Of a stretch of DNA of 64,000 nucleotides, positions 16,017 to 60,476 are shown in pieces (the first letter of the stretch is position 1; every line of letters begins with the position of its first letter). This DNA comes from a bacterium (GTDB taxonomy: Bacteria; Patescibacteriota; Minisyncoccia; UBA6257; 02-FULL-45-10c), in the NCBI GenBank assembly GCA_030700025.1, contig JAUYKI010000015.1, forward strand, positions 28,623 through 92,622. Reading direction: 5' to 3'. Below the pieces are notes generated by a model. That model was given only the letters and a program-made list of their open reading frames with translations. It did not search any database and was not told where the DNA came from. A program made the position numbers and the translations under genes.

Positions 16017-17726
16017 TTAACGCTGACGCTTTTTAACAATGTAAGAATCGTCTTCAAAAACTATTTCACCGGGCACTTGTTTATAAATAAGATCTTTATC
16101 TTTCTGGTAATACACCAGGTAATCCACATGGTATTTCTCCAAATAATGATTAAATTCAACCGGGTCCGGATTAAGCCGTTTGGCGCGAATCGGCCCGAAA
16201 TCATATGGGGTATATTCCAGCAGGGTAGCGGGCGTAAAATCCCGGCCTAAAATCTTGGCTTTAATTTTATTTATAACATTATCTTTTTGCAATGCGGAAT
16301 TAAAAGCTTGGCCGAAAACCCGCGTCTGCTGTTGCTCAAGATTATCAGTAATATATTGATAAGTAACGTCCCAATAAATATAGCGGTCTAGCAATTCTTC
16401 CGTCGGCATCAGTTGCAATTCTTGGCTCGGATGAAAATATAAATAATTATTCGTTAATAAATTAATGTCGTTTCCCAGATCCTTCGGGGCATACACCACT
16501 TTATCGCGAATTTGATTCGCCAAAAACCAGTCCACGACCGCATCCGCCCGGCCGCCGACATAAGTTTCTGCGGTGGCCGGATTGTTTATTTGCGGATCGC
16601 TGATAATTAAATAAGCCTTATTAGCTGCCATCCCAACCGCTACTAAAATAAAAATGGCGGTGGCGATTTTTTTATAGGAGCCGAAATAATTGCTTACGAT
16701 AAAAACTATACCGCCCCAAAAAGCAACAAAAAAGAACAAAAGGGTGGGCAAATAATGCGAATTAAATTCTAGCTGCATTCCGGTAATTATCTGCTGATTA
16801 AGAACCATTAGTCCGGCAACCAGCCCCATGGCAATCTTATCTAAAGTCCCTTCGGTAACTGCCTTCATATCTAGTTTCGGAAAAATATATTTTCGTAATA
16901 CAAAAAAGGCTATTAATGAAGCAATTAAAAAGGCCTGAGTATATAAACCGGCCGGCCAACGGCTATATAAAGCGCCGATCCGAACCATGCTTTCTTTGTA
17001 ATAAGCTAACTGGCTGATCTGCAACAGGTGGATAACATACCAGGAAGCCACGCCGGCAATAATTAAATATTTATACAAGTATTTCCAAATAATTTTTCTT
17101 GCCTGCCAAAACATCCAGCAATCGCTGGCCGCTAAAAGCGCCAAGGCGAAAGTCCAATAATATGGATAAACATAAAATAGCGATCCGGCCAAAACAGCCA
17201 ATCCGATTTCTCGTTTCCAAAATTTTAAATTCGAAAAATAAAAAATAAAAAATAATGCTAATGGAATAAAGTTTATCTCGGGGCTCAAGGTTCGGCCCCA
17301 ATCCAGCCGAGGAATAAAAATATAGGCGGCAGCGGCTAAATAACCGAAATAATGAAAATTAAAAATTACCAAAAACGCGTTTATTAAAAGCGCCATAATT
17401 ACAAAGACCGCCAAATAGCCGGTGATTAAGGCGTAAAATTTTACATCCAGTCCCAATGCGCTTTTAAATAGCCCGGCGGCATGAATGTTTAAAGCCGGAT
17501 ACAAATACGGCTGATAACGCCACTCGGAAAGATACGGGCTGCCCAATTGCCAATTGCCCTTAGAGCTCTCATTAATCAATGATAGATAATAATTAAATCC
17601 GCTGACCTGCTTGGTATTCAAATAATTATCAAAAACAATAGCCTGGGTAAGGTCAAGCTGAATTATGACCGTAAACAAAAGGCTTAAAATCAATATAGTA
17701 TAAATGGATTTTGTTGGGGGGGGCAT
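16017..17726 (-). CDS. Polytopic membrane protein with a C-terminal extracytoplasmic domain (putative GT-C-like glycosyltransferase)
   Basis: About 12 hydrophobic helices plus a C-terminal domain of about 170 aa. A C8 tract lies at codons 2–4 (MPPPT). Confidence 0.45.
   Translation of the reverse strand: MPPPTKSIYTILILSLLFTVIIQLDLTQAIVFDNYLNTKQVSGFNYYLSLINESSKGNWQLGSPYLSEWRYQPYLYPALNIHAAGLFKSALGLDVKFYALITGYLAVFVIMALLINAFLVIFNFHYFGYLAAAAYIFIPRLDWGRTLSPEINFIPLALFFIFYFSNLKFWKREIGLAVLAGSLFYVYPYYWTFALALLAASDCWMFWQARKIIWKYLYKYLIIAGVASWYVIHLLQISQLAYYKESMVRIGALYSRWPAGLYTQAFLIASLIAFFVLRKYIFPKLDMKAVTEGTLDKIAMGLVAGLMVLNQQIITGMQLEFNSHYLPTLLFFFVAFWGGIVFIVSNYFGSYKKIATAIFILVAVGMAANKAYLIISDPQINNPATAETYVGGRADAVVDWFLANQIRDKVVYAPKDLGNDINLLTNNYLYFHPSQELQLMPTEELLDRYIYWDVTYQYITDNLEQQQTRVFGQAFNSALQKDNVINKIKAKILGRDFTPATLLEYTPYDFGPIRAKRLNPDPVEFNHYLEKYHVDYLVYYQKDKDLIYKQVPGEIVFEDDSYIVKKRQR
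17716..17723. repeat. Homopolymeric G8 (C8 on the coding strand) tract at codons 2–4 of the membrane protein gene
   Basis: Counted directly: gttGGGGGGGGcat. Confidence 0.9.
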
Positions 17727-53609: not shown

Positions 53610-54863
53610 TTAATTAGACGACTTTAATATAAAGTATAACACATCCGATAATTTTTCAGTATCTTTTTTACTCGTTCCCCGGCCGAAAGTAATCCGCAAT
53701 CCGGCGCTGGCCCGCTGGTCCGAATAGCCCAAAGCTTTTAAAACATGCGATGGCTTGCAAATCCGGGCGGCGCAAGCCGCGCCCGGGGAAACCGCGAATC
53801 CTGCCAAATCCAGCTTGATAATTAAATCCTGGGCCGTTTCTTGGCCGGGAAAATATAAATTAACATTATTCGGCAAACGCCTTTCTAAATCCCCGTTTAA
53901 TTCTGCTTTGGGCAAAATAGTTTTAATCCGGTTCAAAAAATATTTTTGTAAATCCCTTAATCGCTTGGCTTCTTTGGCCCGATCCCTATCGGCAATTTCC
54001 ATAGCCTTGGCAAAGCCAATAATGCCGGGAACATTCTCTGTTCCTCCGCGCAATCCCGATTCCTGTCCGCCGCCGGTAATCAGCGGTTGTACCGCTGAAA
54101 AATCCGAAATTCGAATATCGAAATTCGAAATGTTTTGAGTTTTAGATTTTGAATTTTGAATTTGTTTGTGATTTGTGATTTGGAATTTGGAATTTTTCCT
54201 GACATAGAGAAGCCCAACTCCTTTGGGCCCGTAAATTTTTTGAGAAGATAAAGTCATTAAATCTACTCCCAGCCGCTGAACATTGCAATCTAAATAATTA
54301 AATGCCTGGGCCGCGTCAGTATGAAAAAGCGGATATCCGCCGTTAGCCGCCTTGTTTTTCTTGAATTCCGAAATTATTTTGCTGATTTCCAGAATCGGCT
54401 GGATTGTTCCGACTTCATTATTGGCATACATTATGGAAACTAAAATAGTCCGGTCGTCCAAAGCAATTCGGAATTTTTTTAAATCCACAATTCCCTTTTT
54501 ATCTACCGGCAAATAAACCACTTCCACGCCATCCCTCTCCAGCTCTAAACAAGTTTCTAAAATTGATTCGTGTTCCACCGCGGAGATAATAATTTTCGGA
54601 CGGCTGATATTTTTAACCGCGCCCCGCAACGCCAAATTATTCGCCTCGGTCGCTCCGGAAGTAAAAACTATTTCTTTATAATGGCATCCTAAAATCTCCG
54701 CGGCCTTCTGGCGGGCATTAAATACCGCCGCCGACGCTTCCTGGCCAAACCAATGCAAAGCCCCGGGATTGCCGTAGATTTTTCTAAAATACGGCCGCAT
54801 GGCTTTCTCCGCCCGCGGATCCACGGGTGTCGCCGCCGCGTAATCAAAGTAATGTCTGCGCAT
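53610..54863 (-). CDS. Cysteine desulfurase (IscS/NifS family, class V aminotransferase) carrying an inserted low-complexity loop of about 33 aa
   Basis: SSQKIYGPKGVGLLYVRK (PLP-lysine region) and AVSPGAACAARICKPSHVLKALG (catalytic Cys loop). The insert between YVRK and GGGQE is encoded entirely by a heptamer array. Confidence 0.8.
   Translation of the reverse strand: MRRHYFDYAAATPVDPRAEKAMRPYFRKIYGNPGALHWFGQEASAAVFNARQKAAEILGCHYKEIVFTSGATEANNLALRGAVKNISRPKIIISAVEHESILETCLELERDGVEVVYLPVDKKGIVDLKKFRIALDDRTILVSIMYANNEVGTIQPILEISKIISEFKKNKAANGGYPLFHTDAAQAFNYLDCNVQRLGVDLMTLSSQKIYGPKGVGLLYVRKNSKFQITNHKQIQNSKSKTQNISNFDIRISDFSAVQPLITGGGQESGLRGGTENVPGIIGFAKAMEIADRDRAKEAKRLRDLQKYFLNRIKTILPKAELNGDLERRLPNNVNLYFPGQETAQDLIIKLDLAGFAVSPGAACAARICKPSHVLKALGYSDQRASAGLRITFGRGTSKKDTEKLSDVLYFILKSSN
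54097..54201. repeat. Array of about 15 phased heptanucleotide units (sub-families TCGAAAT, RTTTTGA, TGTGATT, TGGAATT), 105 nt in total, encoding a 35-aa insertion in the cysteine desulfurase
   Basis: Units parsed directly. The 7-nt phase is kept across all sub-families. The translation is KNSKFQITNHKQIQNSKSKTQNISNFDIRISDFS. Confidence 0.85.
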
Positions 54864-54867
54864 AATT

Positions 54868-55929
54868 TTATTGTAACTCATTCAATTGTTTTTGGATTTT
54901 ATATCCTTGGCAATGTTTTAACAAGCCCAAATAAGATTGTAAATTTTTGCCATTAATTTTTCTCAATAACCTTCTTTTTGTCTTAGTTCTTAAAATTCTA
55001 TAGTGGGGTCTTGCGATATATCCTAAAAAATCAATTCCTTGGGAAAATTTCCGAATAATTATCTTATTCGGATGTAGGGTTAAATTTAAATTATCCGCTA
55101 AAAACTTGCTTACTTTATCTGTAATTCCTATAAAATTCTCTTTTGTATCGCTTAAAACAACAAAGTCGTCGCAATAACGGAGATAATGTTTAATTTTTAA
55201 TTTATGCTTAATAAATTGGTCCAATTCATTTAAATAGATGTTGGCAAAAAGCTGGCTGGTTACGTTGCCAAGTGGCAATCCTTTGTCCGGATTTTTTTCA
55301 AAACTTTTTATAACTTTTTCAATAAGCCAAATGTCTTTTGGGTCAAAAATTTTCTTTTTGATTAAATTCAATAAAATTTGCTGGTCAATAGAATCAAAAA
55401 ACTTACTGATATCGCACTTTAAAACAAAAACCGGCTTGCAGTAATTCTTGCTCAATTTCCGAAGAAAAATTCCTAACCGTTCTACCGCGATATGCGTCCC
55501 CTTGCCCAGCCGCGATGAATCAGAATCGTAAATAAAACCCTTATCAAAAATCACGTATAAAATCCGAAAAATTGCTTGGTGCAAGACCCGGTCTCGGACG
55601 CTGGCTTTATGAATATGCCGCAATTTCGGGTCTTGAACATAAAAAGCTGTGTATAAATCAGGTTTGTAAATTTTATCCTTTAATTCCTGATGAAGTTGAA
55701 ATAAATTGTCTTCCAGATTAAACTCAAATTGCTGAACGTCCGATTTTTTCCTTTTTCCGCGCCGGAATTCTTTCCACGCTAAAAATAAATTTTCCAGCGA
55801 AATTATCCGTTCAAAAATATTATGACTTTTAATACCCCCCCCCCTCCAAATTTGCCTCTGATTCATAAGCTTGATGAATTCTATCGCAATATCTATCTGC
55901 TCGGCAAGCAAATTCCGAAACGGGATCAT
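54868..55929 (-). CDS. Diversity-generating retroelement (DGR) reverse transcriptase
   Basis: RT motifs 1–7 are present. These include DISKFFDSID and the DGR-type motif 4 GLPLGNVTSQLFANIYL (I/LGxxxSQ where other RTs have QGxxxSP). Also present are YLRYCDDFVV (YxDD) and LHPNKIIIRKFSQGIDFLGY. Similarity is closest to Bordetella phage bRT as recalled from memory. The true start is probably internal (about 55866) or near the G10 tract. Confidence 0.9.
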   Translation of the reverse strand: MIPFRNLLAEQIDIAIEFIKLMNQRQIWRGGGIKSHNIFERIISLENLFLAWKEFRRGKRKKSDVQQFEFNLEDNLFQLHQELKDKIYKPDLYTAFYVQDPKLRHIHKASVRDRVLHQAIFRILYVIFDKGFIYDSDSSRLGKGTHIAVERLGIFLRKLSKNYCKPVFVLKCDISKFFDSIDQQILLNLIKKKIFDPKDIWLIEKVIKSFEKNPDKGLPLGNVTSQLFANIYLNELDQFIKHKLKIKHYLRYCDDFVVLSDTKENFIGITDKVSKFLADNLNLTLHPNKIIIRKFSQGIDFLGYIARPHYRILRTKTKRRLLRKINGKNLQSYLGLLKHCQGYKIQKQLNELQ

Positions 55930-56181
55930 TTTGGAATTTTTTTGAAAATTGAAAATGTTTTACTAGATGTTCTCGAATTGATTATTACTGCTTCCCTAGA
56001 AACTAAAATTAATAAAATTTCGCCGTTGAATTCTGCTCGGATTAAAATAGAAATCCTAAAACGGCTGATTAGATTGATACAGGAATTTAAAATCATTGAA
56101 GCGAATAAATATCTTACGTTAGAAAAAGACCTTCAAGAAATTTCCAAAATGATCAACGGCTGGATTAAATACTTAAAATAA
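55822..56181 (+). CDS. DGR accessory variability determinant (Avd-like four-helix-bundle protein)
   Basis: 119 aa. LIHKLDEFYRNIYLLGKQIPKRDHFGIFLKIENVLLDVLELIITA aligns with Bordetella bAvd LIVERYERVISYLYPIAQSIPRKHGVAREMFLKCLLGQVELFIVA. The C-terminal EISKMINGWIKYLK aligns with EVGRILGSWIARV. The bAvd sequence is recalled from memory. The ORF is on the opposite strand to the RT and target. Confidence 0.65.
   Translation: MTFNTPPPPNLPLIHKLDEFYRNIYLLGKQIPKRDHFGIFLKIENVLLDVLELIITASLETKINKISPLNSARIKIEILKRLIRLIQEFKIIEANKYLTLEKDLQEISKMINGWIKYLK
55836..55845. repeat. Homopolymeric C10 (G10 on the RT strand) tract in the region shared by the 5' ends of the RT and Avd ORFs
   Basis: Counted directly. 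It encodes PPPP in Avd and RGGG in the RT ORF. Confidence 0.9.
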
Positions 56182-56204
56182 ATAACTCCGATTAAGGAGT
56201 TATT
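56181..56204. other. 9-bp stem hairpin (aataactcc-GATTAA-ggagttatt) between the Avd stop and the TR
   Basis: Read directly. Confidence 0.4.
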
Positions 56205-56208
56205 TATA

Positions 56209-56336
56209 GAAACTTCTGCGCGAGTCCGCAAATTACCATTGGCGTTGTCCGGATTGTACCAGTTGACCTTGAGCTTGCGATTGATCGGATTCCAATTCAC
56301 GTTCGGCACGTTGCCATTAGGATTGCGCGAACCAGC
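56209..56336 (-). other. DGR template repeat (TR), 128 nt, coding-sense on the minus strand
   Basis: Co-oriented near-identical copy of the VR. All 24 TR/VR differences sit at TR adenines. In the target frame it encodes AGSRNPNGNVPNVNWNPINRKLKVNWYNPDNANGNLRTRAEVS, with 13 AAY codons. Confidence 0.85.
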
Positions 56337-56553
56337 TTTTGCTTGTCTCCTGCTATATCACCGATAATCTTATAACAAAATTATCTGAGTTTTCCGGACA
56401 CACCGGATTTATTTTTGTAGCATTCACCAACGGCGAAACCTACACCAAAAACAAGCAAGCAGTTTCTGTTATTTGTGGTAAATCACTATCCGCCGTAGGC
56501 GGACTGATTATATTAACCGTAATTAGAATAAATCAATTTTGACCAAAAGAAAA

Positions 56554-56580
56554 TCCCCAGTCGCCTTTGGCGACTGGGGA
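56554..56580 (-). terminator. 12-bp GC-rich hairpin (tccccagtcgcc-TTT-ggcgactgggga) followed by a T-run on the minus strand, about 30 nt after the target stop
   Basis: Read directly. It could be the target-gene terminator, the DGR structure downstream of the VR, or both. Confidence 0.6.
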
Positions 56581-56609
56581 TTAAGGGTTCAAGTCAAAAG
56601 ATTCAAGGG

Positions 56610-57347
56610 TTAAACAGAAACTACTGCGCGAGCCCGCAAATCACCACTGGCGCTGCCCGGACCGTACCAGCCGACCCCGAGCCAGCGACCGATCGGACCC
56701 CAATCCACGCACGGCACGCTGCCATCAGGATAGCGCGAACCAGCGCAAAGTGTCCAATTCTTTTCATCCAGGTGTTTATTAGTTTCCAGGAAATACTTGA
56801 GTTCCAGGAGCAGACGCTCTTCCAGGGCGATGCCATTGATTTGCTCTTTGGCCAAGTCATTGGCTGACTTGTTCTTGAGCTCTTCGTCGGCTTCCTGGCG
56901 GTCTCTGACCCAGATGGCGTAGGTTTCGCCGGTGTTTCGGACCGAAGTGATGGAATTGAGATTGTTCGTGCAGGTCCAAACGCTCATGTGTTTCCTTAGG
57001 ACTTGGACAATCTGATTGAGGGTCAATCCCTTGGCAACGACAATCAACCAATCAATGCCCGGAACACGCTTTGGGGGCTGGATTTTTGAGATATCCAGCT
57101 CAATGCCAAATTCCTGGCGGTAGAGGGTTTGCCAGGCGCGAAGCATTGCTCGCACACTCTGGCCGGGTCGGGTCTGCTTTTCTTTGATGACAGAAGCTGT
57201 TGCTTCCGCGAAATTCGGATTCTCCTTAATTCGCTGAAGCGCCCCGGACACCTGATCCGGATCGCGCTTGCCATCCCGCACCAGCTCCAGCACCGTAGTC
57301 ACCAAATCCAGCAGCCGCGCTTTCTTTCGTTCGGTTCTTGCGAACAT
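56610..57347 (-). CDS. DGR target (variable) protein. The N-terminal region is uncharacterised. The C-terminal region ends in the VR and may be C-type-lectin/FGE-like.
   Basis: The C-terminus is ...NWTLCAGSRYPDGSVPCVDWGPIGRWLGVGWYGPGSASGDLRARAVVSV. The start was set at ATG 57347 (MFARTERKK), preceded by AAGGAG. The gene is markedly GC-richer than the neighbouring RT and Avd. Confidence 0.8.
   Translation of the reverse strand: MFARTERKKARLLDLVTTVLELVRDGKRDPDQVSGALQRIKENPNFAEATASVIKEKQTRPGQSVRAMLRAWQTLYRQEFGIELDISKIQPPKRVPGIDWLIVVAKGLTLNQIVQVLRKHMSVWTCTNNLNSITSVRNTGETYAIWVRDRQEADEELKNKSANDLAKEQINGIALEERLLLELKYFLETNKHLDEKNWTLCAGSRYPDGSVPCVDWGPIGRWLGVGWYGPGSASGDLRARAVVSV
56617..56744 (-). other. 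DGR variable repeat (VR) forming the last 43 codons of the target gene
   Basis: 104 of 128 positions are identical to the TR. All 24 mismatches are at TR adenines (A to G/T/C in the coding sense). It ends 5 nt before the stop. Confidence 0.85.
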
Positions 57348-57426
57348 TTTTGTTCTCCTTAGTTCTTTCACATCTGTCCAAATCCGGTTATCGCGGATTG
57401 GTATCTGATTTTGAAAGAACGTTCCT

Positions 57427-57455
57427 ATTATAATTCAATTTTTTATTCTTGTCAA
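57427..57455 (-). promoter_or_regulatory. Consensus sigma-70 promoter (TTGACA-17-TATAAT) on the minus strand, driving the DGR target gene
   Basis: The plus strand reads attata at 57427–57432 and tgtcaa at 57450–57455, with a 17-nt spacer. Confidence 0.55.
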
Positions 57456-57474
57456 GCAATAAATTGGGGGCTTT

Positions 57475-57628
57475 AAAACACAAAATCCTCTTGTTTCTGA
57501 TACCCGCGCAGCCGCTTTGCCCTGGTCCAATCGTTATGGGCGGAGCCACGATTGGCAAAGCGAGCGAGCACAAGAGAGTCCGCGGTGGCGGACGAACGGG
57601 TTGAGGGAATAAGAGGATTTTGTGTTTT
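57475..57628. repeat. GC-rich element of about 118 bp bounded by a perfect 18-bp inverted repeat (aaaacacaaaatcctctt / aagaggattttgtgtttt), lying between two divergent promoters
   Basis: Read directly. The interior has further stem-forming segments (gctttgcc/ggcaaagc, ccaatcg/cgattgg). Confidence 0.5.
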
Positions 57629-57649
57629 TTAAATTATTAAAAACTTTCT

Positions 57650-57678
57650 TTGACAAAAGTTAATTAAAAGCGTAAATT
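57650..57678 (+). promoter_or_regulatory. Consensus-like sigma-70 promoter (TTGACA-17-TAAATT) upstream of 57689..58186
   Basis: Read directly. The -10 hexamer ends 10 nt before the ATG. Confidence 0.5.
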
Positions 57679-57688
57679 ATAAGACATT

Positions 57689-58186
57689 ATGACCGAGCCA
57701 ATGCTTTTTAACAGCTCCTTCGGCCTGAAGCTGGATCCTTTTCAAATCGTTAAGGCGATTTCTGATTTTATCAACTCCGACCCTAAGCGGGAATATAAAA
57801 TTACCGTGGGCACCGATTCCCAAAAACGGCAGGACAACAAAGCGGATTTCGTTACCGCCATTGTCGTCCATCGGGTTGGCTATGGCGGACGCTATTTCTG
57901 GCGGCACATGGAAATCGCCAAATCTTACACGCTAAGGGACAGAATGTGGCAAGAAGTGCTTACTTCTTTGGACATCAGCAAAGAATTAGTGGTGCTTTTA
58001 AAAAATGCCGGACTGGAAAAATATAATTTTGAAATTCATGTGGATATCGGCGAAAAAGGCGAAACTAAATCTATGATTCAAGAACTGACCGGCATGATCC
58101 GCGCGCACAACTTTGAAGCCCGGACCAAGCCGGACAGCTATGCCGCCTCCAAAGTCGCCGACCGGCATGTTCATATTTATGACTAA
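57689..58186 (+). CDS. YkuK-like (DUF458) RNase-H-fold protein
   Basis: ITVGTDSQ...ADFVTAIVVHRVGYGGRYFW...EIHVDIGEKGETKSMIQELTGMI...AASKVADRH is colinear with Bacillus YkuK as recalled from memory. Confidence 0.6.
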   Translation: MTEPMLFNSSFGLKLDPFQIVKAISDFINSDPKREYKITVGTDSQKRQDNKADFVTAIVVHRVGYGGRYFWRHMEIAKSYTLRDRMWQEVLTSLDISKELVVLLKNAGLEKYNFEIHVDIGEKGETKSMIQELTGMIRAHNFEARTKPDSYAASKVADRHVHIYD

Positions 58187-58211
58187 TCGCTAACCACTAA
58201 TTACTAAATCA

Positions 58212-58778
58212 ATGGATAAATTAGTCTTAGACATAGAAACTAAAAATACTTTTGCCGAAGTCGGCGGGCAAGAAAACATCCACAAATTGGAGGTATCTTT
58301 TGTCGGCGTTTATTCTTACAACCAAAACCAATATTTTTCTTTTTTTGAAAATGAATTGGATAAGCTGGGCCCAATGCTCCAAAGCGCCGGCTTAATAATC
58401 GGATTCTGTTCTAACCGCTTTGACCTGCCGGTTTTAAAAAAACATTACAAATTTAATATCATGTCTCTGGAAAGCCTGGATATTTTGGAAGAAATTGAGG
58501 AAAGGCTCGGCCACCGGATCAGCCTAAACGAATTGGCCTACGCCAATTTGAGAACCCAAAAAACCGCCCACGGATTGGAAGCGATTAAATTTTATAAAGA
58601 AGGCCGGCTGGAAGAATTAAAAAAATATTGCCTGAACGACGTAAAAATCACCAAAGACCTTTATGACCTGGGAATGTCCCAGGGTCACTTAGTCGTTCCC
58701 CAAAGAACTACCGGCGAAATGCAAAAAGTGGAATTTGACTGGCATACCCGATTGCCTTCGGCGTCTACCCTATTTTAA
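58212..58778 (+). CDS. Predicted 3'-5' exonuclease (RNase-H-like / DEDD-type, YprB/PolB-exo-like)
   Basis: N-terminal LVLDIETKNTF (Exo I-like DxE), with later acidic motifs. Confidence 0.4.
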   Translation: MDKLVLDIETKNTFAEVGGQENIHKLEVSFVGVYSYNQNQYFSFFENELDKLGPMLQSAGLIIGFCSNRFDLPVLKKHYKFNIMSLESLDILEEIEERLGHRISLNELAYANLRTQKTAHGLEAIKFYKEGRLEELKKYCLNDVKITKDLYDLGMSQGHLVVPQRTTGEMQKVEFDWHTRLPSASTLF

Positions 58779-59796
58779 AACGCTTTATCCGTTTTAGCTC
58801 CTGATTCAGGAGTTTTTTATTTTTCGCTTCTATATTGATTCTTAAAAGCGGTTCGGTATTGGAAGCTCTAATATTAAACCAGTGGTCCGGAAACTCTGCC
58901 GTTAAGCCATCTAACTTAGAAATTTTCGCTTTTTGTTTTTTATAATATTGTTCTACTCTTTCCAAACTTTTAACTTTTAACTTTTCGCTTTTAACTTTAA
59001 GGTTGATTTCCCCGCTCCGGTAATACTTCGGCGATTTGTCCAGATATTCAGAAACTGGAATGTTTAATTTAGAAACAAAATTTATAATATGAATTGCCGC
59101 TAAAATACCCGAGTCCCAGACCGTGTCTGGTCCGCCTCTGGCGGAAAAATCTGGAAATCCAAAATAATAATGGCCGGAATGTTCCAGGCCCAGCGGAATC
59201 TTTTTCTCCCGCATCAGCTTTTTGAAAAAATAATGGCCGACGCGTGAAACGCTAACTTTTGACTTATAACCATTAACTATTAACTTTCTAATAAGTTGAC
59301 CGGAGATAACGCTGACGATATAAGATTTTGGCTTTAGCTCTTGCAGTAATAAATAACCGGTTTCGTCCGGACTGATTACTCTGCCCAAATTGTCTACCAA
59401 AAACATTCTGTCGCCGTCGGCGTCAAAAATCACGCCCAAGTCCGCGTGGTGTTTTAATACGGCTTTTTGTAGTTGGCTAATCGCTCCCGGCGCCAGCGGA
59501 TTCGGCCCATGCCCGGGAAAATGACCGTCGGGTTTATCGTTGATAAAAACAATTGACAATTGACAATTAACAATTAACTTCCGGAAAAGTTCTTTTAGAA
59601 CTTTTCCGGTTGTGCCGTTGGAACAATCAAAAACTATTTTTAACGGCTTGCCCTGAGCCTGCTTGCCCCGCTGTGGCGGTGGTCGAAGGAGTCTTAAAAA
59701 TCGTTTTAAATACTTAACGTATAAACCCGCGTAATCCATATGATTATTATACAGAAAATAAAAAACTCCGCGCATTACGGAGTTAGGCATAGCCAC
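58765..59796 (-). CDS. Phosphohexomutase (phosphomannomutase/phosphoglucomutase) C-terminal fragment, domains II–IV
   Basis: FDCSNGTTG, FDADGDR (Mg2+ loop), GLEHSGHYYF (sugar-binding loop) and RASNTEP (phosphate-binding loop). Its likely independent start is MDYAGLYVKYLK at about 59738, preceded by TATAAT. Contains three heptamer arrays. Confidence 0.7.
   Translation of the reverse strand: MAMPNSVMRGVFYFLYNNHMDYAGLYVKYLKRFLRLLRPPPQRGKQAQGKPLKIVFDCSNGTTGKVLKELFRKLIVNCQLSIVFINDKPDGHFPGHGPNPLAPGAISQLQKAVLKHHADLGVIFDADGDRMFLVDNLGRVISPDETGYLLLQELKPKSYIVSVISGQLIRKLIVNGYKSKVSVSRVGHYFFKKLMREKKIPLGLEHSGHYYFGFPDFSARGGPDTVWDSGILAAIHIINFVSKLNIPVSEYLDKSPKYYRSGEINLKVKSEKLKVKSLERVEQYYKKQKAKISKLDGLTAEFPDHWFNIRASNTEPLLRINIEAKNKKLLNQELKRIKRFKIG
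58965..58999. repeat. Heptanucleotide tandem array (AACTTTT)x3 plus 2 degenerate units in the phosphohexomutase coding sequence, encoding KVKSEKLKVKS
   Basis: Read directly; translation confirmed. Confidence 0.85.
59551..59578. repeat. Heptanucleotide tandem array (AATTGAC)x2(AATTAAC)x2 in the phosphohexomutase coding sequence, encoding VNCQLSIVF
   Basis: Read directly; translation confirmed. A further phased stretch lies at 59251–59292. Confidence 0.85.
59761..59784 (-). terminator. Hairpin (aactccg-TAATGCG-cggagtt) plus T-run on the minus strand, directly after the small ORF stop
   Basis: 7-bp stem followed by TTTTTTATTTT on the minus strand. Confidence 0.5.
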
Positions 59797-60019
59797 CGGC
59801 TTCTTCTTGCTGGATAGCGCTTAACACTTCTTCTAATTTCCCTTCCCGGATATGGTCAATCGGACGCTGATTGCCGATAAAAGCGTTGTGGCCGTGAAGC
59901 CAATTCAACGCGGTTTCCGGATTATACATATTTAAAAGCCGTTGGAAAATACTCAAAATTCGCAAAGACCTTAAAATCTCTTCTTCCGAGTCCCAGCTTA
60001 AAACTATCTTTTCTCCCAT
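59783..60019 (-). CDS. Small ORF of 78 aa resembling the C-terminal toxin-binding domain of DUF2384 (Xre/MbcA/ParS-type) antitoxins. It is inserted between the two phosphohexomutase fragments.
   Basis: YNPETALNWLHGHNAFIGNQRPIDHIREGKLEEVLSAIQQEEAGGYA fits the DUF2384 pattern A..WL...N.AL.G..PIDLL....G...V...L..IE.G.YA. It has its own GAGGGAGG RBS and a terminator hairpin. Confidence 0.5.
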   Translation of the reverse strand: MGEKIVLSWDSEEEILRSLRILSIFQRLLNMYNPETALNWLHGHNAFIGNQRPIDHIREGKLEEVLSAIQQEEAGGYA

Positions 60020-60089
60020 CTCTGCCTCCCTCGGGCGTCCCGCTTGGCGGGATTAGCTCTACAACTTTCAAGAACAAAATTATTTTAAA

Positions 60090-60476
60090 CTATTTTTTAA
60101 ATAAAAGCAAAATTTCCTTCCCACTAATCGGTTTGGCGTTTTTCCCAACCACCTTCAGCCCGTTAAAATTTTTCGGATTATGGGAAGCCGTAACCATAAT
60201 CCCTCCGCTCGCCTTCAGCTTATTCACCAAAAAATAAAACATGGGGGTTGTTGTCATTCTAACGTTCTTAAGAACGTTAGAATGTTGCAAGCCCTTTAAA
60301 ACCGCCTTATAAAGCGCCGGCGAACTCAAACGCGCGTCATGGGCAACAACTATCCTCTTTCCTAAAAGCTTAGGTAACTTTATCGCTATCGCGGAAACCA
60401 CCCTTTCATTTATCTCTCTCGGGTATTGCCCCCTGATATCATAGGCTTTAAAAATTTTCTCATTCATTACTTCCAT
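60090..60476 (-). CDS. Phosphohexomutase N-terminal fragment (domain I with the active-site serine loop)
   Basis: IFKAYDIRG..., GIMVTASHNP (TASHNP phosphoserine motif). It ends at a TAG about 70 nt upstream of the small ORF. Confidence 0.7.
   Translation of the reverse strand: MEVMNEKIFKAYDIRGQYPREINERVVSAIAIKLPKLLGKRIVVAHDARLSSPALYKAVLKGLQHSNVLKNVRMTTTPMFYFLVNKLKASGGIMVTASHNPKNFNGLKVVGKNAKPISGKEILLLFKK

Follow-up and report, generated by a model that had tools for sequence, protein, structure and literature searches.

The stretch of DNA analysed here (the window, 64,000 nucleotides long) contains a complete diversity-generating retroelement (DGR). The preliminary description had claimed as much, and its three parts, a reverse transcriptase (RT), an adenine-only pair of template region (TR) and variable region (VR) at the 3′ end of an open reading frame, and an Avd gene, were each tested and upheld. 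The DGR is a real but ordinary example of a kind already known from candidate-phyla-radiation (CPR) bacteria; its possible novelty is a stretch of some 10 G residues, conserved and variable in length, in the region where the RT and avd genes overlap at their starts. The explanation that best fits the locus as a whole, and in which our confidence is high, is a chromosomal CPR-type DGR, which by analogy would work by a mechanism like that of BPP-1 and is probably controlled through this tract. The features are listed below.

54868..55866, minus strand: DGR reverse transcriptase, 332 aa from ATG 55866 (ORF open to 55929); Pfam RVT_1, 2.8e-22
55822..56181, plus strand: avd, 119 aa from ATG 55822; Pfam bAvd, 1.1e-16
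55835..55844, both strands: homopolymer, G10 on the RT strand and C10 on the avd strand, inside the 45-bp antisense RT/avd overlap
56178..56207, minus strand: hairpin with a perfect 12-bp stem, immediately 3′ of the TR, then TTTT; from the sequence
56208..56336, minus strand: template region (TR), rich in AAY codons, 35 A; from alignment
56358..56391, minus strand: TR-leader element, consisting of AAC-N-CAG, a 9-bp hairpin (56363–56385) and GGTGA
56507..56536, minus strand: promoter-like site for the TR RNA, TTGATT-18-TATAAT, 10/12
56552..56582, minus strand: 14-bp GC-rich hairpin plus T-run, about 30 nt past the VR; scored as an intrinsic terminator
56610..57347, minus strand: target (variable-protein) gene, 245 aa from ATG 57347, with the VR at its 3′ end
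56616..56744, minus strand: variable region (VR), the last 43 target codons, in register with the TR, from which it is offset by 408 nt
57427..57455, minus strand: promoter-like site for the target, TTGACA-17-TATAAT, 12/12

The proteins and the repeat pair

The RT had been described as colinear with the Bordetella phage enzyme bRT, and this was borne out: residues 13–305 aligned with residues 4–285 of bRT, and 8ub7_A was the best solved relative (E 4.5e-40). The DGR signature LPLGNVTSQLFANIYL / LGNVTSQLFANIYL (LGNVTSQ, of the I/LGxxxSQ type) and the YCDD box were likewise present. The protein scored 141 bits with bRT as opposed to at most 66 bits with LtrA, GsI-IIC and retron RTs, and was thus 75 bits nearer bRT than any other solved RT; group II, retron and DRT RTs matched it at about 1e-17 or worse. 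It fell far below the cut-off of all NCBIfam models for group II, retron, Drt2-5 and AbiA enzymes. For the group II RT/maturase model TIGR04416 it reached 142 bits against a cut-off of 300, and it has just 332 residues. Rfam returned neither group II intron nor retron ncRNA hits in the window. By these sequence comparisons, the RT groups with Bordetella phage bRT and not with group II or retron RTs, and its homologues number more than 7,000 at E ≤ 1e-60.

The Avd ORF reached 61.7 bits with Pfam bAvd, above the cut-off of 40, and 68.5 bits (5e-19) with NCBIfam DivGenRetAVD, under the equivalog cut-off of 80; it also weakly matched 4dwl, from Bordetella phage Bbp7. Its strand, absent from the preliminary description, is opposite to that of the RT, TR and target, and 94 of 107 related loci likewise have an inverted avd where the RT gene starts.

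The target protein comprises a helical N-terminal region and a C-type-lectin/FGE-like C-terminal domain, and the VR is the end of this C-type-lectin-fold domain. Identity with the solved DGR variable proteins TvpA of Treponema denticola (2y3c) and TaqVP of Thermus aquaticus (5vf4) is only about 10–12%, and their N-terminal domains differ from that of the target; Foldseek alone gave no significant match for the fold, and Pfam gave none for the sequence. No signal peptide or transmembrane segment was seen by eye. In related genomes, many homologues of the target lack an RT gene within 6 kb, and one remote target, P0051, is without an RT. The RNase H-like (PF04308) and exonuclease genes beside the target were considered as DGR accessories and set aside as not part of the system, because only one other locus (L048) has them near a target homologue.

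An ungapped pairwise alignment of 56209–56336 with 56617–56744, both on the minus strand, reproduced the 104 identities and 24 mismatches reported for the 128 positions. All 24 mismatches fall on a TR adenine (20 A>G and 4 A>T) and none on C, G or T, so that 24 of the 35 TR adenines are substituted; the translations given earlier for both repeats also agree with those of the ORFs. The boundaries needed slight revision. The repeat is one base longer at its 3′ end (TR 56208, VR 56616; 129 nt), and its span could extend to 56203–56340 if A-only differences are allowed. Counted from the earlier boundary at 56617, 4 bases separate the VR from the TAA stop codon, not 5 as claimed. A GC-rich conserved 3′ block (GCGGNCTCGCGCAG.AGTTTCT) closes both TR and VR, and the flanks diverge beyond it. 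The probability that 24 random mismatches would all hit the 35 A positions is 6.9e-18. Every VR substitution lies at codon position 1 or 2 of the target frame, 12 at each, and the TR adenines themselves are distributed 16/17/2 over codon positions 1/2/3. No further VR for this TR was found in the 64-kb window.

The related loci follow the same pattern. The cassette target-TR-(inverted avd)-RT is common to 41 related Patescibacteria loci, and 50 related TR/VR pairs are A-specific, with pooled counts of 519 A>G, 238 A>T, 151 A>C and 35 non-A changes. In a sister species represented by three strains, about 2.4 kb are identical save for 29 VR columns and one G of the tract, and 18 of the 19 variable residues correspond to TR codons whose first or second base is A. 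The share of A>G is 83% at our locus (20 of 24, with no A>C) and 57% on average in the family, whereas bRT misincorporates in vitro in the order dA > dC > dG (PMC7826257). Since the spectrum of the locus is more G-skewed than both, its explanation has to appeal to selection or to another bias of the RT. Ongoing diversification at the window locus itself is something we infer, because a single VR sequence is known for it: the NCBI MAG and the Logan contig are identical, and an RT look-up for population variants gave only this one Logan contig, the same as the window.

RNA elements and the proposed mechanism

A GC hairpin had been reported after the VR as in characterised DGR homing sites. The hairpin is present, but its stem has 14 bp rather than 12, and it is first of all a terminator, scoring as an intrinsic one because a T-run comes after the stem; by analogy, it possibly serves as a homing-site hairpin as well. 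An equivalent hairpin (z < −2), placed 35–50 nt past the VR, was found in 82% of 49 related loci. The hairpin that follows the TR, unlike the one past the VR, is AT-rich, and it overlaps the final avd codons on the opposite strand. Its position is occupied in 92% of 50 related loci by hairpins of differing sequence, and by comparison with BPP-1 it probably corresponds to the Avd-binding stem-loop of the spacer RNA or else terminates the TR RNA. Avd-binding stem-loops just past the TR have been predicted in 207 of 278 DGRs, CPR included (bioRxiv 10.1101/2023.10.23.563531). Because both hairpins resemble plain terminators, the homing and Avd-binding roles are assigned by analogy only.

The leader hairpin upstream of the TR showed compensatory changes in 8 of its 9 pairs, between near-invariant flanks, when 42 loci were analysed with RNAalifold. 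The leader element had no match in Rfam, and we found no mention of a covarying leader hairpin of CPR DGRs in the searchable literature. No counterpart of the BPP-1 spacer RNA could be demonstrated in sequence or structure. Two candidate pairings were rejected: a leader-to-downstream duplex like the BPP-1 'cPRT stop' gave no RNAduplex signal over shuffles (mean z −0.36), and GGUGA:UCAUU showed no covariation in alignments inspected by eye. Rfam searches of the whole window at the gathering threshold and of 55700–57750 at E ≤ 1 gave nothing relevant, the single hit being a sub-threshold NsiR1 match on the terminator hairpin. A structured 170-nt element at 57465–57635 belongs to no Rfam family and has no copies in the relatives.

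On the model of BPP-1, the TR would be transcribed from its own promoter within a structured RNA, which would carry the conserved leader hairpin with its AAC-N-CAG and GGUGA flanks and a 3′ stem-loop that probably docks Avd. RT and Avd together would then turn the TR into cDNA, misincorporating opposite adenines, and this cDNA would replace the VR, re-randomizing some 24–35 positions of the ligand-binding face of the target, a small protein that appears to be cytoplasmic or non-classically exported. The tract could make the supply of RT and Avd stochastic, either through heritable length changes by slipped-strand mispairing or through slippage in transcription or translation.

The poly-G tract at the RT and avd starts

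The 45-bp antisense overlap is that of the start regions of RT (ATG 55866) and avd (ATG 55822), and the tract, which codes for Gly-Gly-Gly in RT and Pro-Pro-Pro-Pro in Avd, lies between these ATGs and the conserved bodies of the two genes. Frame analysis showed that each ATG does or does not share the frame of the gene body behind it, depending on tract length. With the G10 of the window, which is found in both assemblies of this organism, both ATGs are in frame (the 'on' configuration). Of the related loci, only about 30% have their upstream ATGs in frame, a proportion that fits a switch and also fits irrelevance of these ATGs.

The tract is the only C run of at least 7 in the window. At least seven G residues occupy the same site in 82 of 107 related loci, most commonly 9–10, and 27 of the 31 G/C runs of at least 8 in 717 kb of related loci are at this site. 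Tract length varies inside three related species, over a range of G7–G11: the three strains of the sister species have G7, G7 and G8; a second species has G8, G9 (six assemblies), G10 (two) and G11; and a third has G9, G10, G11 (three) and one interrupted tract. A G6 run in a neighbouring gene was constant in all four loci that reach that far. When RT proteins are clustered at 90% identity, the members of a cluster differ precisely in the poly-Gly. Relatives without the tract have either clean back-to-back ATGs or other repeats, (GT)n and (CCTGT)6, at the same junction. Because coverage is only 2–6x in some contigs, some of the variation in length from one assembly to another could stem from errors in sequencing or assembling homopolymers. 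We found no report of a homopolymer at avd/RT starts in the searchable literature; the 2017 paper in which Paul et al. reportedly described the CPR DGR set may mention it.

Since the tract sets the reading frames and varies within species, RT and Avd are probably expressed stochastically, which would make mutagenesis stochastic too, and these sequence patterns make the tract a probable stochastic switch or slippage site controlling the mutator. We propose tentatively, at a little less than an even chance, that in a large clade of CPR DGRs one hypervariable G/C tract sets the production of the RT and Avd subunits by length change or slippage. If so, targeted hypermutation would be on only in a stochastic subpopulation. 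This would amount to second-order bet-hedging, of which the searchable literature gave no description for DGRs.

The tract could act instead at the level of RNA or the ribosome, through transcriptional slippage or frameshifting on G9–10/C9–10, such that RT and Avd are always made at a low level. Among genomes, the frame of the assembled tract is near random while its length is held at 9 or more, as would be expected from relaxed selection on exact length together with selection for slipperiness; furthermore, the sister species, out of frame at G7/G8, still diversifies its VR. Length polymorphism of the DNA is nevertheless seen directly within three species, and we regard this explanation as somewhat unlikely, although RNA-level slippage and a heritable DNA switch are not mutually exclusive.

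A further possibility is that the tract has no switching role, RT and Avd starting independently of it (for instance, Avd at the TTG past the tract and RT at a non-canonical codon) and the lengths being neutral or sequencing error. The window does contain an alternative avd start, TTG 55852, right behind the C-run, where the Avd family profiles begin; a TTG or GTG start past the tract is found in some other loci as well. Similarly, the alignment with bRT begins at K13, immediately past the poly-Gly, the upstream ATGs are in frame at about the one-third expected by chance, and the coverage of some contigs is very low. However, a canonical Avd start past the tract exists in only 22 of 71 loci, in-frame ATG, GTG and TTG codons are absent between the tract and the conserved ENLFxAW motif in nearly all loci, and the residues directly past the tract show conservation at the protein level. 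If the run were neutral, decay would be expected, yet the lengths cluster at 9–10 and uninterrupted runs persist across a clade with more than 7,000 RT homologues. Particular lengths recur in independent assemblies (G9 six times, G11 three times), a nearby G6 is invariant in the four loci that reach that far, and relatives place other simple repeats at the same junction. We therefore consider it unlikely that the tract is without a switching role. The poly-G was also considered as a Shine–Dalgarno sequence for a downstream RT start and rejected as such, as no canonical in-frame start follows and the first codon is CTT, GTT or ATT.

It is more improbable still that the cassette is a relic whose VR was diversified formerly and which no longer works in this lineage. 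The one known VR sequence, the many target homologues that lack a nearby RT, and the assembled tracts, which in roughly 70% of relatives leave neither canonical ATG in frame, would all agree with decay. By contrast, the three ORFs (RT, Avd and target) are intact here, as are the two promoters and the RNA elements of the TR, and the tract is in frame. A decaying repeat would also gather mismatches of other kinds, whereas 24 of the 35 TR adenines differ with no non-A change, and strains of the sister species vary in the VR only, in spite of their out-of-frame tract.

Finally, the reading that this is no DGR, but an ordinary duplication diverged by chance or by adenine deamination (A>I>G) beside a group II, retron or defence RT, is effectively refuted: the 20 A>G changes are what deamination would give, but the remaining 4 are A>T (A>T or A>C make up 43% family-wide), confinement of the mismatches to A has a P of 7e-18, codon position 3 is avoided, only one copy is substituted, the RT lies 75 bits closer to bRT and below the cut-off of every group II, retron and DRT model, and an avd gene adjoins it.

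Comparison with known systems

DGRs with the layout of the window have already been catalogued in CPR bacteria, as architecture 'B3' (Wu et al. 2018, NAR 46:11, PMC5758913), and an avd/TR arrangement like that described here accounts for 90% of CPR DGRs (PMC5758913). With the CPR/DPANN DGRs the element shares a Patescibacteria host, an avd, TR and RT without any other accessory gene, the order and orientation of avd and TR, unlike those in Bordetella, a small target with a C-terminal VR and no Pfam match, and A-specificity with occasional non-A changes in relatives. The core cassette shows no essential difference from them. As one more example of a well-catalogued class, the DGR matters little alone.

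The likeness to BPP-1 (mtd-avd-TR-brt) extends to a colinear RT with IGxxxSQ-type and YxDD motifs, Avd, a TR of about 130 nt rich in AAY codons, a VR at the C-terminal end of a C-type-lectin fold, a stem-loop that immediately follows the TR and, past the VR, a GC hairpin. Unlike BPP-1, the window DGR is chromosomal, without surrounding phage genes, and its 245-aa target has no tail-fibre context. Its avd is inverted and placed between TR and RT, so that the sequence following the TR runs antisense to avd, where BPP-1 has a non-coding spacer. The TR is preceded by a predicted promoter of its own and by a leader, where BPP-1 has the 3′ end of avd.

The tract itself resembles the poly-G/C contingency loci, by which Campylobacter, Neisseria, Haemophilus and Bordetella phase-vary genes through slipped-strand mispairing. 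Common to both are a G/C homopolymer of 7–12 at the 5′ end of a coding region, variation of its length within species between identical flanks, a start codon moved into or out of frame by +1/−1 changes, and other repeat types at that place in relatives. Here, the genes that would be controlled encode both subunits of a targeted mutator instead of a surface antigen or a restriction–modification system; and, unlike in the usual contingency loci, one tract in an antisense overlap acts on the frames of two divergent genes together. For the host, an uncultivated CPR bacterium, switching is proposed by analogy.

Mutagenic homing is rare and potentially costly, and, to our knowledge, the natural regulation of DGR activity is largely unknown. 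If the tract gates both RT and Avd, it would provide a concrete mechanism for the stochastic control of targeted hypermutation in CPR bacteria. The tract also has a practical consequence: automatic gene calls of RT and avd are truncated or wrongly started at this site, and DGR surveys may for this reason rate such elements as defective.

The cassette and its adenine-specific repeat pair

The preliminary description proposed a complete diversity-generating retroelement (DGR) at 54868-57347, with a reverse transcriptase (RT), an accessory gene (avd), a template region (TR) and a variable region (VR) at the 3′ end of a target gene. This layout agrees with the ORF list and with the sequence of 54500-58500 on the minus strand, and both the observation and its interpretation are correct after the adjustments given below.

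Features of the cassette
54868-55866, minus strand: RT, 332 aa in the NCBI annotation, with a Pfam RVT_1 match
55822-56181, plus strand: avd, a 119-aa ORF, above threshold for Pfam bAvd
55835-55844: G10/C10 homopolymer inside the antisense RT/avd overlap
56178-56207: TR-proximal hairpin, a perfect 12-bp stem followed by TTTT, overlapping the avd end on the other strand
56209-56336, minus strand: TR
56358-56391, minus strand: TR-leader element (AAC-N-CAG, 9-bp hairpin, GGTGA), from an alignment of 42 loci
56536-56507: second good promoter, before the TR (consensus scan)
56582-56552: 14-bp hairpin and T-run, after the VR (consensus scan)
56617-56744, minus strand: VR
56610-57347, minus strand: target ORF, 245 aa, of which the VR forms the last 43 codons
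57455-57427: perfect sigma-70-type promoter, before the target (consensus scan)

An ungapped alignment of TR and VR gave identity at 104 of 128 positions, as had been claimed, and a script count reproduced the adenine-only pattern: all 24 mismatches have A in the TR, 20 being A>G and 4 A>T. The TR holds 35 adenines among its 128 positions, and the probability that all 24 mismatches would land on these by chance is 6.9e-18. Every one of the 24 substitutions is at codon position 1 or 2 of the target frame; the TR adenines themselves are distributed 16/17/2 over codon positions 1/2/3, which is the AAY-type design expected for a DGR template. The repeat includes one further identical base at its 3′ end (TR 56208, VR 56616), and could extend over 56203-56340 if A-only differences are tolerated. 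No second VR for this TR was found within the 64-kb window. The target protein is identical to MDP3999658.1, from an NCBI MAG labelled 'bacterium'.

The RT had been described as DGR-type and colinear with that of Bordetella phage (bRT), a claim that database comparison bears out. Its best match among all PDB sequences was 8ub7_A (E 4.5e-40, 141 bits), a chain identified as bRT from the alignment (RHRNLIDQITTWENLL..., IGSLTSQLFANVY, YMDD), with RT residues 13-305 colinear with residues 4-285 of 8ub7_A. By contrast, group II intron RTs, retron RTs and DRTs scored at most 66 bits, and the NCBIfam models for group II, retron and DRT families were all far below cut-off. The proposed Avd-like ORF is likewise an Avd according to Pfam bAvd; it fell just under threshold for NCBIfam DivGenRetAVD and matched 4dwl weakly. 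What needed adjustment was its orientation, as avd is inverted, being encoded on the plus strand whereas RT, TR and target are on the minus strand.

Related loci, VR diversification and substitution spectrum

We collected 78 related loci from a one-genome-per-species scan and 80 from a metagenome scan with RT alignment. Almost all of the target family's more than 380 members come from Parcubacteria/Patescibacteria; their alignment is conserved as far as '...NWTLCAGSR', beyond which it becomes hypervariable on a fixed scaffold. According to tblastn mapping, 41 loci have the order target(+)-TR(+)-avd(-)-RT(+), and 94 of the 107 loci in which this region is present have an inverted avd at the RT start. 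[quoted passage not shown] Since the 'B3' avd/TR arrangement accounts for 90% of CPR DGRs, being nearly absent elsewhere (Wu et al. 2018, PMC5758913), the cassette is the standard CPR form. For about half of the target homologues in loci L002-L079, no RT lies within 6 kb, and there are genomes with several target paralogues (for example L003 and L007, on one contig); these copies may be remote targets or orphans.

The first 186 columns are the same in all three target proteins of one 90%-identity cluster (P0104, P0131 and P0132), whereas the last 50 contain 19 variable positions, and 18 of these 19 match TR codons of locus L013 in which A occupies position 1 or 2. At the DNA level, the cassettes of L013, L080 and L081 share ~2.4 kb in which only 29 VR columns and a single base of a G-run differ. 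The window's own organism is represented by only one VR sequence among those available, and for this reason current activity at the window locus is something that we infer. Within one cluster, P0118 and P0128 have Asn-rich, TR-like ends and P0125 has a diversified VR; the Asn-rich ends may stem from chimaeric assembly of TR and VR, or the VR may be unmutated.

A diagonal scan that tolerated mismatches only at TR adenines found 50 TR/VR pairs, which, pooled without the window, contain 519 A>G, 238 A>T and 151 A>C changes, together with 738 unchanged adenines and 35 non-A differences. The A>G share is 83% in the window and 57% as the family average, placing the window at the G-rich end, where L025 (24/28) and L043 (17/18) are comparable. 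In vitro, bRT-Avd inserts dA (A>T), dC (A>G) and dG (A>C) opposite template A at 22%, 18% and 12%, respectively (PMC7826257). The A>G excess reflects either an RT of this clade that favours dC or selection for Gly, Asp and Ser. Deamination alone is excluded, since 43% of the family-wide changes are A>T or A>C.

RNA elements and neighbouring features

In 92% of the 50 loci the TR is immediately followed on its 3′ side by a strong hairpin, whose sequence varies by locus. In BPP-1 the Avd pentamer docks on the first spacer stem-loop, and stem-loops of this kind have been predicted just downstream of the TR in 207 of 278 DGRs, CPR included (Handa et al., bioRxiv 10.1101/2023.10.23.563531). By analogy, the hairpin 3′ of the TR is most likely the counterpart of this Avd-binding stem-loop; because of its U-run, it is also terminator-like. 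In the leader element, 8 of the 9 hairpin pairs show compensatory changes across the 42 loci and the AAC-N-CAG and GGTGA flanks are near-invariant; Rfam gave no match to it. A long-range duplex between leader and downstream sequence, like the BPP-1 'cPRT stop', was looked for and could not be demonstrated. The GC hairpin after the VR, which had been likened to those of DGR homing sites, is present, and its position is conserved in 82% of loci. Since a T-run always comes next, we regard it as at least a terminator, here with a 14-bp stem.

Between the target promoter and an RNase H-like gene lies a GC-rich structured element of 170 nt (57465-57635; z ~ -7 on either strand), with an 18-21-bp inverted repeat at its bounds. 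It had no Rfam match and no other copy in the window or in the relatives, and could be a small ncRNA or a MITE-like insertion. The RNase H-like gene (PF04308; 57689-58186, plus strand) and a 3′-5′ exonuclease-like gene (58212-58778, plus strand) adjoin the target divergently. This pair recurs next to a target homologue only in L048, so it is probably unrelated to the DGR. Farther on, a phosphomannomutase gene (58765-60476, minus strand) is split into domain I (60090-60476) and domains II-IV (58765-59796), with a 78-aa ORF between the parts (59783-60019) that weakly matches an Xre/MbcA/ParS antitoxin C-terminal domain.

The homopolymer at the RT and avd starts

The ATGs of RT (55866) and avd (55822) face each other across a 45-bp ORF overlap, and the tract inside it is the only C run of at least 7 in the 64 kb. 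It is absent from the preliminary description. A tract of G7-G12, mostly 9-10, occupies the same place in 82 of 107 related loci, and 27 of the 31 G/C runs of at least 8 in 717 kb of related sequence are this junction tract. Relatives that lack the tract have clean back-to-back ATGs a few bases apart. L116, L140 and L144, which have no poly-G, instead carry (GT)7-8 or (CCTGT)6 at the avd/RT junction, within the avd 5′ frame.

By homology, the poly-Gly is immediately followed by the RT core, K13 aligning to bRT R4, and the residues immediately following the tract are conserved. In nearly every locus, the stretch separating the tract from the conserved ENLFxAW motif lacks an in-frame ATG, GTG or TTG; the canonical ATGs of RT and avd are both on the far side of the tract, each being the reverse complement of a His codon in the opposite gene. 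The tract length in the window puts both ATGs in frame. Frame offsets of the two ATGs were mostly concordant among 71 loci (both in frame, 14; neither, 43; discordant, 14).

Tract length also varies within three related species (L013/L080/L081, L168-L177 and L178-L183). It is G7, G7 and G8 in species A; among ten independent assemblies of species B with identical flanks, it is G8 in one, G9 in six, G10 in two and G11 in one; and species C has G9, G10, three times G11 and one interrupted tract. These differences may in part be homopolymer error at low coverage, but such error fails to account for lengths recurring across several assemblies, or for the invariance of a G6 run in the adjacent H+-PPase gene of species C (four loci reaching that far). 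Inside single 90% clusters, the RT proteins diverge precisely at the poly-Gly or have truncated N termini in the gene calls, and gene callers alternate, pairing a long RT with a short Avd in some cases and a short RT with a long Avd in others.

We interpret the tract as a conserved element, hypermutable or slippery, which determines the reading frame of the two RT-Avd subunits. It may act as a heritable on/off switch, or it may be a site of transcriptional or ribosomal slippage; that it is a tolerated nuisance is the least likely reading. As a testable means by which a targeted mutator might be controlled stochastically, the avd/RT homopolymer makes the locus somewhat more interesting. A full-text literature search, with Paul et al. 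2017 outside its scope, found no link between DGRs and homopolymers or phase variation.

A second G/C tract occurs in the window, in a 569-aa ORF without a Pfam match (16017-17726, minus strand), whose ATG is followed by C8 (17716-17723) in codons 2-4. As this 'ATG + poly-C' design is the same as that of some avd starts, the ORF is a candidate and may, by analogy, have another length-variable gene start.
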